A stretch of DNA of 64,000 bases from Escherichia coli (GTDB taxonomy: Bacteria; Pseudomonadota; Gammaproteobacteria; Enterobacterales; Enterobacteriaceae). How positions within the stretch are numbered: the stretch's first letter is position 1; each line of letters starts with the position of its first letter. The position numbers and the translations under genes are program-made. The stretch is taken from assembly GCF_024502345.1 (NCBI RefSeq), contig NZ_JALDNN010000001.1. One strand, written 5' to 3'. Positions 8,538 to 33,525 of this stretch are shown here, in pieces. The notes beneath the pieces are model-generated. The model made no database searches and was not told the DNA's origin. It saw only the letters and a list, made by a program, of their open reading frames with translations.

Positions 8538-9581
8538 TTATCCACGTAGTGTAGCCGCAAAATCCAGCATACGATTGAGCGGCACCAGCGCCCTCTCTCG
8601 CAGCCTTTCATCAACATGAACCTCGTGATTGCTTCCTTCCTGTTCTAATGCCTCTGCGATGGCCTGAAGGCCATTCATGGCCATCCACGGACAATGCGCG
8701 CAGCTGCGGCAGGTTGCACCCTCACCCGCGGTTGGTGCTTCCAGTAACTCTTTATCTGGCACCGCCTGCTGCATTTTGTAGAAAATACCCCGATCGGTTG
8801 CCACAATAAGCCTCTGATGTGGCAATGTTTTCGCAGCAGCGATCAGTTGACTGGTGGAACCGACCGCATCCGCCATATCGACAATAGCTTGTGGTGATTC
8901 TGGATGCACCAGTATGGCAGCATCCGGGTATTCTTCTTGCAAGCGGGTTAACGCCTGAGTCTTAAATTCATCATGCACAATGCAGGCACCCTGCCAGCAT
9001 AAAATGTCTGCGCCCGTCTGTTTTTGCACGTAACGCCCCAGATGTTTGTCGGGTGCCCAGATGATTTTTTCACCCAAACTATCCAGATGATCAATAAGTT
9101 CGACGGCAATGCTTGAAGTTACCACCCAATCTGCCCGCGCTTTTACCGCAGCAGAAGTGTTGGCGTAGACGACGACAGTATGATCGGGATGGGCATCGCA
9201 AAATGCGTTAAATTCTTCAACAGGGCAGCCGAGATCCAGTGAACATTCAGCCTGAAGTGTCGGCATCAGAATTGTTTTTTCCGGACTGAGAATTTTGGCG
9301 GTTTCTCCCATAAATCTCACCCCAGCGACTAACAACGTAGAGGCGGGATGCTTTGCACCGAAGCGCGCCATTTCCAAAGAATCAGAAATGCAGCCACCGG
9401 TTTCTTCTGCCAGTTGTTGAATTTCGGGATCGGTATAGTAGTGGGCAACCATCACCGCATTACGTTCTTTTAGCAGACGTTTTATCTTCTCGCGGTAATA
9501 CGCTTTTTCATCAATGCTTAACGGCGTCGGCTTCGGGGGGAAAGGATAAATCGCCGTGTCTGGATCAAACATCACGCTCAT
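8538..9581 (-). CDS. nadA: Quinolinate synthase
   Basis: 347 aa; NadA family sequence. Confidence 0.93.
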
Positions 9582-9824
9582 CTTACCATCTCGTTTTACA
9601 GGCTTAACGTTAAAACCGACATTAGCGTGATATTCGCTGTTATCGGTGTGATTTGTTTTATATGCTAAACAAGATAGTCGAATGGTGGGGAAAAGTCACT
9701 CGAATTACGTATGAGATGCCGAATGCCACACTTTGCGTCTTATTCCTCCGACGTAAAGTTGTTTACGCAGCAAGCGCGGAGTATGTCATCAGGGTCAAGA
9801 ATTGAAATTGAGAGATGCCTGAAT

Positions 9825-9860
9825 AGCAAAAAAGCGCCTTTAGGGCGCTTTTTTACATTG
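9825..9860 (-). terminator. Distal copy of the lysT-operon terminator
   Basis: Hairpin aaaaaagcgccctaaaggcgctttttt (minus-strand sense); second copy of a ~55 bp direct repeat. Confidence 0.6.
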
Positions 9861-9978
9861 GTGGGTCGTGCAGGATGACTCGCTTCGCTCGCCCTTCGGG
9901 CCGTCGCCGCGAGCGGCTCCGTTGTTTCGCTGCGCTCAACTCAAACCTGCTGCAGGTTCGAATCTTTGAGTATCGCAG

Positions 9979-10012
9979 ATAGCAAAAAAGCGCCTTTAGG
10001 GCGCTTTTTTAC
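9979..10012 (-). terminator. Rho-independent terminator immediately after lysQ
   Basis: Same GC hairpin plus T-tract directly 3' of the last tRNA. Confidence 0.75.
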
Positions 10013-10014
10013 AT

Positions 10015-10090
10015 TGGTGGGTCGTGCAGGATTCGAACCTGCGACCAATTGATTAAAAGTCAACTGCTCTACCAACTGAGCTAACGACCC
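10015..10090 (-). tRNA. lysQ: tRNA-Lys (anticodon UUU)
   Basis: 76 nt; reverse complement reads GGGTCGTTAGCTCAGTTGGTAGAGCAGTTGACTTTTAATCAATTGGTCGCAGGTTCGAATCCTGCACGACCCACCA. Confidence 0.95.
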
Positions 10091-10123: not shown

Positions 10124-10199
10124 TGGTGGGTCGTGCAGGATTCGAACCTGCGACCAATTGATTAAAAGTCAACTGCTCTACCAACTGAGCTAACGACCC
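10124..10199 (-). tRNA. lysZ: tRNA-Lys (UUU)
   Basis: Identical 76 nt tRNA-Lys copy. Confidence 0.95.
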
Positions 10200-10247: not shown

Positions 10248-10323
10248 TGGTGGGTCGTGCAGGATTCGAACCTGCGACCAATTGATTAAAAGTCAACTGC
10301 TCTACCAACTGAGCTAACGACCC
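10248..10323 (-). tRNA. lysY: tRNA-Lys (UUU)
   Basis: Identical 76 nt tRNA-Lys copy. Confidence 0.95.
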
Positions 10324-10326
10324 GAG

Positions 10327-10402
10327 TGGTGGGTGATGACGGGATCGAACCGCCGACCCCCTCCTTGTAAGGGAGGTGCTCTCCCAGCTGAGCTAATCAC
10401 CC
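10327..10402 (-). tRNA. valZ: tRNA-Val (UAC)
   Basis: 76 nt; reverse complement reads GGGTGATTAGCTCAGCTGGGAGAGCACCTCCCTTACAAGGAGGGGGTCGGCGGTTCGATCCCGTCATCACCCACCA. Confidence 0.95.
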
Positions 10403-10453: not shown

Positions 10454-10529
10454 TGGTGGGTCGTGCAGGATTCGAACCTGCGACCAATTGATTAAAAGTC
10501 AACTGCTCTACCAACTGAGCTAACGACCC
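10454..10529 (-). tRNA. lysW: tRNA-Lys (UUU)
   Basis: Identical 76 nt tRNA-Lys copy. Confidence 0.95.
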
Positions 10530-10531
10530 GG

Positions 10532-10607
10532 TGGTGGGTGATGACGGGATCGAACCGCCGACCCCCTCCTTGTAAGGGAGGTGCTCTCCCAGCTGAGCTA
10601 ATCACCC
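10532..10607 (-). tRNA. valT: tRNA-Val (UAC)
   Basis: Identical 76 nt tRNA-Val copy. Confidence 0.95.
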
Positions 10608-10742
10608 GATACTACGCTGGATACTACAACTAACTATGTTAGTGGTGGGTCGTGCAGGATGACTCGACTTCGTCTCGCCCTTCGGGCCGTTGCTGATGCA
10701 ACGTTATCCTTCACGTTTTACTACCGCTTCCACCTTAGCGAT

Positions 10743-10818
10743 TGGTGGGTCGTGCAGGATTCGAACCTGCGACCAATTGATTAAAAGTCAACTGCTCTAC
10801 CAACTGAGCTAACGACCC
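10743..10818 (-). tRNA. lysT: tRNA-Lys (UUU)
   Basis: Identical 76 nt tRNA-Lys copy; first gene of the operon. Confidence 0.95.
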
Positions 10819-33329: not shown

Positions 33330-33525
33330 TGTCGGTCACCCGTAGGCCTGATAAGACGTGTAAGCGTCGCATCTGGCATCGCTTGTCGGATGCGGCGCGA
33401 GCGCCTTATCCGACCTACATCGGTGCTTCCCGTAGGCCTGATAAGACGCGTTAAGCGTCGCATCAGGCTTCAATTGCCGGAGAAGGCGATAATGTCTTAT
33501 CCGGTCTACAGTGCAGGTGAAACTT
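33330..33525. repeat. BIME/REP cluster in the sucB-sucC intergenic region
   Basis: Repeated gcctgataagacg...cgcatc palindromic units. Confidence 0.6.

Follow-up and report, generated by a model that had tools for sequence, protein, structure and literature searches.

A short-form tRNA-linked repeat of the RtT RNA family in the lysT-valT spacer of Escherichia coli

The spacer between lysT and valT in the window, the whole stretch of 64,000 nucleotides of Escherichia coli DNA that was analysed, contains a module of 100 nt (10643-10742, minus strand) that, from its match to RF00391 and its predicted fold, is very probably a short-form member of the tRNA-linked repeat (TLR) or RtT RNA family. On this reading the module is a 3' trailer that would be trimmed during tRNA maturation, is dispensable and has no demonstrated role. 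Judged by its sequence, the element has every feature by which TLRs are recognized and is of an already-known kind. It is a routine copy of a family that was described in 1978, catalogued in 1999, entered in Rfam and partly annotated by PGAP. What is documented here is that the outer stem of the repeat covaries with the identity of the host tRNA, that the long form looks like an insertion into a T loop, and that a single operon has from 0 to 5 copies. The preliminary description had spoken of two decayed tRNA-like modules in addition to seven intact genes. The two modules and the seven tRNAs are there, but the simple decay of tRNA-Lys is not borne out. The notion of a decayed tRNA is partly right as to ancestry and misses the conserved core and the identity of the family.

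ARAGORN located seven tRNA genes on the minus strand between cpoB (ybgF) and nadA: lysT, which encodes tRNA-Lys(UUU) (10743-10818; 79.2 bits with the Rfam tRNA model), valT (tRNA-Val, 10532-10607), another tRNA-Val gene (10327-10402) and further tRNA-Lys genes at 10454-10529, 10248-10323, 10124-10199 and 10015-10090. The repeats, stems and hairpins of the operon described below are on the same strand. The ends of the tRNA genes place the lysT-valT spacer at 10608-10742, which gives the 135 nt originally reported, and the spacer sequence quoted with that figure is present in the window. The residual 35 nt between the module and valT (10608-10642) are all that is left of the spacer in strains that lack the module. 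No tRNA or tRNA-clan model matched inside 10608-10742 in the Rfam scan, even at E <= 1, and ARAGORN found no tRNA there. Both strands of the region have open reading frames of 31-55 amino acids, which extend across the tRNA genes and have no support. Matches of the Y RNA-like (YrlA) and Plastid-ycf2 models over the tRNA genes fell below the gathering threshold and were set aside as reflecting tRNA-likeness. Several other structured RNAs were recorded in the window. A strong match to the CpoB/ybgF intergenic RNA thermometer (RF02782; 11745-11883, minus strand, 140 bits) lies upstream of the operon, and naRNA4 (RF02564; 37789-37859, plus strand, 88.4 bits, and 33345-33415, minus strand, 64.9 bits) and ES036 (RF02751; 55248-55290, minus strand, 72.4 bits) were above gathering.

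The module extends from the first base past the lysT CCA to a repeated CCA. Its 3' end, ATCCTGCACGACCCACCA at 10643-10660, is identical to positions 59-76 of lysT, as found by both repeat search and local alignment, and comprises A59-U60, the T-stem 3' strand, the acceptor 3' strand and ACCA. The hairpin followed by a copy of the tRNA-Lys acceptor/T-arm 3' strand and CCA that had been noticed earlier is thus real, and the copy is exact over 18 nt. Local alignment of the module with intact lysT showed that the similarity is confined to these 18 nt. The proposed kinship with the fragment downstream of lysQ was substantiated by the alignment that had been suggested as a check: 10642-10700 against 9861-9920 gave a score of 79, compared with a mean of 13.8 and a maximum of 33 for shuffled sequences (0 of 2000 reached 79). 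The non-tRNA parts of the two elements alone gave a score of 47, with a shuffle maximum of 28 (0 of 2000). The two elements have in common an exact 24-nt repeat, TGGTGGGTCGTGCAGGATGACTCG, at 10643-10666 and 9859-9882, whose first 18 nt are the 3' end of every tRNA-Lys gene in the operon, and a second block, CTCGCCCTTCGGGCCGT(C/T)GC, at 10674-10693 and 9888-9907 (GCAACGGCCCGAAGGGCGAG, one mismatch).

The spacer element was matched by RF00391 (RtT RNA) at 10643-10811 with 60.2 bits against a gathering threshold of 45 (E = 2.9e-9 for the whole window). Model positions 1 to approximately 55 fall on lysT with non-canonical pairs, and the convincing match is the 3' part. Since the 5' half of the model is laid on lysT, the short form fits the curated family only in its 3' ~70 nt. 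The match over lysT (10743-10811) was rejected as true homology; the two are probably not homologous, the short form having been forced into a model of the long form, and the real partner of the outer stem P1 lies at 10706-10715. In K-12, the lysT operon has five RF00391 matches, one per tRNA-Lys gene, and the tyrT-tyrV locus has four canonical RtT copies.

As recounted by Stenum et al. 2021 (PMC8144298), the first description of TLRs is that of Egan and Landy in 1978, and Rudd 1999, relayed by the same paper, counted 22 of them in K-12, spread over ten loci that hold one to five each. Rudd 1999 and Bosl & Kersten 1991 are given here as they are cited in PMC8144298 and PMC2965389. [quoted passage not shown] The lysT-valT module lies directly downstream of a tRNA gene, on the same strand and in the same operon, and ends in 18 nt (10643-10660) identical to that upstream tRNA. 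Its core, which consists of the hairpin CGUUGC/GCAACG, GNCCCGNAGGG, a variable hairpin and then GAGU, is common to the Tyr, Arg, Pro and Lys copies of about 60 genomes and to the 5S-linked copy of rrnB. The view that nothing beyond the 18-nt copy resembles the tyrT RtT copies is contradicted by the Rfam scan, the family alignment and local alignment.

Members of the family were retrieved with the core pattern CGTTGC-N4-5-GCAACGNCCCGNAGGG, using one genome per species, which yielded at least 175 modules at no fewer than 120 loci. The hosts among the matches listed were Enterobacterales together with Marinobacterium, Alcanivorax/Alloalcanivorax and Amphritea. Among the matches listed (at least 175 modules), the upstream tRNA was Lys(UUU) for 44 modules, Tyr(GUA) for 36, Arg(ACG) for 32, Pro(UGG) for 21, Pro(CGG) for 10, Arg(CCG) for 5 and Pro(GGG) for 1, while for 26 no upstream tRNA was detected in the retrieved flanking DNA. 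Of the 149 listed modules that have an upstream tRNA, 127 end by repeating the 3' end of their own tRNA exactly over at least 12 nt, usually 18-19 nt. The core is also present in the 5S-linked rrnB repeat. Because it is common to copies behind different host RNAs, the non-tRNA part of the module is not an eroded tRNA-Lys.

The minimum free energy (MFE) fold of the 100-nt module was -34.7 kcal/mol (z = -2.77), and the fold of the 74-nt core had z = -3.6, with 0 of 200 shuffles as stable. In the predicted structure, P1 (GUGAAGGAU/AUCCUGCAC) encloses three hairpins. The 5' strand of P1, CGUGAAGGAU at 10706-10715, pairs with 10651-10660 in both the MFE and the centroid folds, CGUG-AAGGAU being set against AUCCU-GCAC(G). 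The 3' strand corresponds to the first 10 nt of the 18-nt copy and is therefore tRNA-derived, consisting of the T-stem 3' strand and the first acceptor nucleotides. In the lysT-valT copy, P1 has one A.G mismatch and stops after two acceptor nucleotides. Within P1, the MFE fold has hairpin 1 (CGUUGC-AUCA-GCAACG, 10688-10703), hairpin 2 (GGCCC-GAA-GGGC with the stem GCCC/GGGC, 10677-10687), which is common to the post-lysQ copy and the rrnB 5S-linked repeat, and hairpin 3 (GAC-GAA-GUC, 10666-10674), whose sequence varies across the family while the hairpin is kept. The MFE folds of most family members have the same architecture.

The stem of hairpin 1 is invariant in all of the retrieved modules, at least 175, by construction of the search pattern. 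As the stems of hairpins 1 and 2 are fixed by that pattern, they lend no independent support to the fold and their covariation is uninformative. In the alignment of 40 sequences, pair 34-45 of hairpin 3 was GC in 20, CG in 10, UA in 4, UG in 2 and AU in 1; the covariation score of this hairpin was reached by 0 of 500 shuffles and was also above all slid controls. The 5' strand of P1 is matched to the 3' strand of the tRNA class behind which it lies. Counting one event per class, 9 of 5040 permutations paired as well, and this class-level test is still significant even though the score, which counts contiguous pairs, is lowered in the Lys short form by its A.G mismatch. The 5' and 3' strands are GUG(A/C/U)AGGAU and AUCCUGCAC behind Lys, GGGGAAGGAU and AUCCUUCCCC behind Tyr, GGGAGGAU and AUCCUCCC behind Arg(ACG), and GCCUGGAGGG and CCCUCCAGGC behind Arg(CCG). 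Since the pairing reaches acceptor nucleotides that no tRNA 5' segment pairs in this register, the 5' strand is not merely a copied T-stem strand. As read from the aligned sequences, the covariation shows selection on the structure somewhere in the history of the family; it does not show a present function of the lysT-valT copy.

The 5' segment of the module (10723-10742) has a motif of its own. GGUGG at 10730-10734 (minus strand), which is set against 10644-10648 in the MFE fold, is the complement of CCACC at the module's own end, where CCACC comprises the final two acceptor bases, the discriminator and CC. Mature tRNA-Lys and tRNA-Val have ends to which it is complementary as well. It recurs in modules of the lysT and lysZ types in K-12, Citrobacter and Enterobacter, while the lysW/lysY-type modules lack it and carry a UUAACAUC...GAUGUUAA hairpin in its place.

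The element downstream of lysQ (9859-9984) is a long-form tRNA-linked repeat whose outer stem has decayed and whose 3' end is again the 18-nt tRNA-Lys copy (9859-9876). Its RF00391 match, 46.7 bits against the gathering threshold of 45, has many non-canonical pairs. P1 is mostly lost in the E. coli copy, and a segment, GCAGGTTTGAG, resembles the 5' half of the tRNA-Lys T arm. In many genomes, PGAP (NCBI) labels the stretch orthologous to the post-lysQ copy 'RtT sRNA'. An exact 54-nt repeat (copy 1, 9979-10032; copy 2, 9823-9876; 100% identity, spacing 156) consists of the tRNA-Lys 3' end and a Rho-independent terminator, and the pair flanks a 156-nt unit that is present or absent by strain. 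A Rho-independent terminator of the operon has been described (PMC4176162). The A6-GCGCC...GGCGC-T6 terminators (minus strand) were missed by a simple scan, in which the A/T runs were absorbed into the stem, and their assignment is based on the sequence and on PMC4176162.

The long forms, the post-lysQ copy included, have the T-stem 5' strand and GUUCGA of the cognate tRNA just upstream of the core, and one Arg copy retains 23 nt of the tRNA 3' half. With these remnants in place, the long form reads as the 3' part of a tRNA with approximately 75 nt inserted in the T loop, and the point of insertion appears to lie between A58 and A59. This arrangement suggests that the family arose from the 3' portion of a tRNA that had received an insertion in its T loop. 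The lysT-valT copy, a short form, lacks the extra domain of the long forms.

Some individual loci may be noted beside this. In Citrobacter werkmanii (~9355-9445, reverse strand of the locus) and Citrobacter sp. FP75 (~1573), a near-exact tRNA-Tyr sequence, TGCCGTCATCGACTTC-AAGGTTCGA, runs straight into the core, which is followed by a degenerate 3' end, AATCCTTACCGCTATAG; by its sequence the copy looks like a tRNA-Tyr gene or pseudogene broken in the T loop. Tandem long forms with a terminator in each unit were found in Pantoea sp. IMH (locus positions 2126-2465, three 156-nt units behind tRNA-Lys) and in Serratia oryzae (locus positions 1473-1823, three 162-nt units behind tRNA-Pro). Both arrays mirror the 178-nt array at E. 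coli tyrT.

The occurrence of the modules varies among strains. The lysT-valT spacer was found at 80% or more of its length in 3591 of 5426 complete E. coli genomes, and the matches with partial coverage comprised query positions 83-135 only. The unique part of the post-lysQ unit was present in 3238 of the 5426. K-12 has five modules in the lysT operon, the window strain two, strain 104 one and strain 20AR0479 none. The lysT-valT spacer of strain 20AR0479 is 35 nt long, which is the remainder after removal of the DNA between the 18-nt repeats, and strain 104 is without exactly the 156-nt post-lysQ unit. The exactness of the loss at the repeats indicates that modules are gained and lost cleanly by recombination or slippage between them, and the existence of a strain with zero modules indicates that their absence is tolerated and that the module is dispensable. 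Since clean loss is frequent, the module probably adds little to fitness. With its direct repeats of 18 and 54 nt, the operon is a hotspot for length polymorphism and for assembly and annotation differences between strains, and natural strains with 0 to 5 copies in one operon offer ready isogenic-like comparisons. Per E. coli genome, the core of the post-lysQ long form (query 9877-9978) occurs at two places in the median and at five at most. In many strains it must thus be present elsewhere or in tandem; a likely site is downstream of lysV in the valU operon, where the terminator is identical (PMC4176162).

One rival reading, which takes up the decay proposed in the preliminary description, makes the modules pseudogene debris from tandem tRNA-Lys duplications, lacking a structure or role of their own. 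The 18-nt identity with tRNA-Lys is in keeping with this, as are the T-stem 5' strand and GUUCGA retained by the long forms, the 23 nt of tRNA 3' half in one Arg copy, the decayed outer stem and borderline score of the post-lysQ copy and the presence/absence polymorphism. However, a non-tRNA core that occurs behind Tyr, Arg and Pro tRNAs and 5S rRNA, from Enterobacterales to Marinobacterium, Alcanivorax and Amphritea, cannot be the yield of independent decay of different tRNA genes. The covariation of hairpin 3 and P1 and the lack of any tRNA-model match in the spacer at E <= 1 also weigh against debris, which is very unlikely to be the right account and, as a complete explanation, is largely refuted. 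Of the claim of decay, what survives is a tRNA ancestry for the long form; the identity of the spacer element with tRNA-Lys ends at 18 nt.

The same direct repeats could have been left by an integration event, the module being an attR-like duplication of a tRNA 3' end by a phage or integrative element and the core the remnant end of that element. The repeated segment begins in the T loop (A58/A59) and continues to the 3' end, a geometry that Williams, in 2002, is said to have described for the target sites of T-loop-class integrases. The long forms resemble an insertion between UUCGA and AAUCC, and presence or absence is precise between the repeats. Yet only ~80 nt lie between the repeats, with no integrase or credible open reading frame, the covariation of P1 and hairpin 3 points to a constraint at the RNA level, and 5S rRNA genes carry the core too. 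Nor does the core (CGTTGC..GCAACGGCCCGNAGGG) appear to be of phage or plasmid origin. Among 50,697 phage records, the only ones to contain it were mis-filed Salmonella chromosome contigs and one unverified contig, and it was found in 21 of 72,556 plasmid records, all of them non-mobilizable and mostly Mb-sized and chromosome-like. A phage or plasmid source was rejected, since the matches are mis-filed chromosome contigs, the one unverified contig and chromosome-sized 'plasmid' records, and an integration footprint is extremely improbable. The record OR850888.1, 'Salmonella phage S.Kent 1-2-1' (UNVERIFIED_ORG), is a low-coverage contig of 7.4 kb with tRNA-Pro(CGG) followed by a TLR core at 1268-1500 of the locus; its source is most likely the host chromosome and not a phage.

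A broader reading of the core may be put forward as a long shot. The core could be a structured RNA that replaces the T loop in an acceptor/T-arm helix, so that the module mimics the 'top half' of a tRNA with a genuine NCCA tail and engages the tRNA 3'-end or RNase P machinery as a decoy, a buffer or a device for ordered processing, or it could be the trace of an element that inserts between A58 and A59 at GGUUCGAAUCC T loops. If true, either version would explain why one core is found behind at least 7 tRNA species and 5S rRNA, why each copy ends in the last 18-19 nt of its own host, and why the 5' strand is fitted to the 3' strand of each host.

With a trimmed RtT-type trailer as the preferred reading, the published processing of the operon becomes relevant. 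The K-12 lysT operon is transcribed as a single RNA of ~1100 nt, whose tRNAs are separated by RNase P in the 3'->5' direction; RNase P cleaves poorly when the 3' trailer is long, and RNase E cuts the long spacers that trail the Lys tRNAs only when RNase P is inactive (PMC4176162). The published model gives the Lys pre-tRNAs trailers of up to 150 nt and has them removed by RNase II/PNPase and then RNase T, and probes to the lysT-valT spacer detect precursors in RNase P mutants (PMC4176162). In wild-type Northern lanes of this study, the one on processing that was located, no discrete spacer RNA from the lysT operon was reported, 'surprisingly few other processing intermediates' being seen, and the repeats in the operon were not mentioned (PMC4176162). 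In K-12, the rttR of tyrT is annotated with its 3' end precisely at the repeat's CCA. RrB, in its long form, extends 3 nt beyond its repeat, and from this Stenum et al. proposed that the repeat is a processing signal (PMC8144298).

By analogy, RNase P cleavage at the 5' end of valT would leave pre-tRNA-Lys with the module as its 3' trailer. The copy of the tRNA 3' end may then act as a processing signal at which the tRNA 3'-maturation nucleases would leave a defined CCA end, as in rttR, the fold of the module and its tRNA-like CCA end presumably halting 3' trimming at 10643. Cleavage near the CCA of lysT would free an RNA of approximately 95-100 nt. The module is thus most likely a co-transcribed 3' trailer trimmed to a tRNA-like CCA end, as the precedent of rttR suggests.

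The module might also act in cis on tRNA maturation, either as a surrogate acceptor/CCA end for RNase P or as a block to 3' exonucleases that imposes the 3'-first order. The 3'->5' order of RNase P, its poor cleavage with long trailers and the RNase E cuts in Lys-trailing spacers when RNase P is inactive (PMC4176162) would suit such a role, and in several family members P1 nearly reaches the discriminator base, so that a free CCA projects beyond the helix. On the other hand, P1 of the lysT-valT copy stops after two acceptor nucleotides, its tail may pair with GGUGG, many strains have operons lacking any module, and the valU operon, whose tRNAs are identical and whose spacers are short, uses the same processing route (PMC4176162). 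As module-free operons and valU are processed alike, a cis role is compatible with the data but not required, and we consider it unlikely.

A role in trans would have the freed spacer RNA act as a regulator, a sponge for proteins or small RNAs such as RrA/RrB/RrF or 3'ETS-leuZ. The structure is conserved, RrA, RrB and RrF undergo processing and bind both Hfq and CsrA in vitro (PMC8144298), and RtT copies at a presumably equivalent Klebsiella locus were reported to be differentially expressed (PMC4147364). Against these observations, all 19 tRNA-linked TLRs scored <0.01 in a CsrA-binding predictor, and the stringent-response role claimed for rtT of tyrT has since been withdrawn (PMC8144298). 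Strains lose all copies with no obvious consequence, and no stable product was noted in wild-type Northerns (PMC4176162). A trans-acting regulator is therefore quite unlikely.

The short-form TLR of the lysT-valT spacer may be compared with several known systems. Like the tRNA duplications at att sites, it has a direct repeat that starts in the T loop and a precise presence/absence pattern, but it has no integrase or cargo, the ~80 nt between the repeats form a conserved, covarying RNA-like structure, and its core was not found in phages or genuine plasmids. The lysT-operon modules are, like 3'ETS-leuZ, co-transcribed with tRNAs, and they would likewise be freed by tRNA-processing nucleases (PMC8144298, introduction). 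3'ETS-leuZ is a base-pairing sponge for small RNAs and lacks a copy of a tRNA 3' end, whereas the lysT-operon modules have no known target or partner. RrA, RrB and RrF lie between dual terminators after 5S rRNA and have GGA motifs that bind CsrA, while the tRNA-linked members are predicted to be non-binding (PMC8144298); the rrnB 5S-linked copy and the module nevertheless both hold AACGTTGC-GAAG-GCAACGGCCCGGAGGG.

The closest relative is rttR of the tyrT-tyrV locus (RF00391). Both have the same core (CGUUGC/GCAACG, GNCCCGNAGGG, a variable hairpin and GAGU-AUCC), the same outer stem that uses a tRNA-derived 3' strand, the same place behind a tRNA gene in one transcript and the same 18-19-nt copy of the tRNA 3' end. 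The tyrT copies are long forms of 178 nt that score 133-137 bits, end in the tRNA-Tyr 3' end and have an extra internal domain (GAGAACCUUCG...AAGGUUCGA..GAGCG), whereas the lysT-valT copy is a short form of 100 nt and 60 bits that lacks this domain and has a tRNA-Lys end. A processed RNA is annotated for tyrT, and none is documented for the lysT-valT copy. Compared with the K-12 TLRs as catalogued by Rudd 1999, in so far as that catalogue is relayed in later papers, the module has the hallmark of the class, 18 bp of 3' end identical to the upstream stable RNA. The window strain has two of the five copies found in the K-12 lysT operon, and the operon fits the description of a TLR locus with up to five copies.
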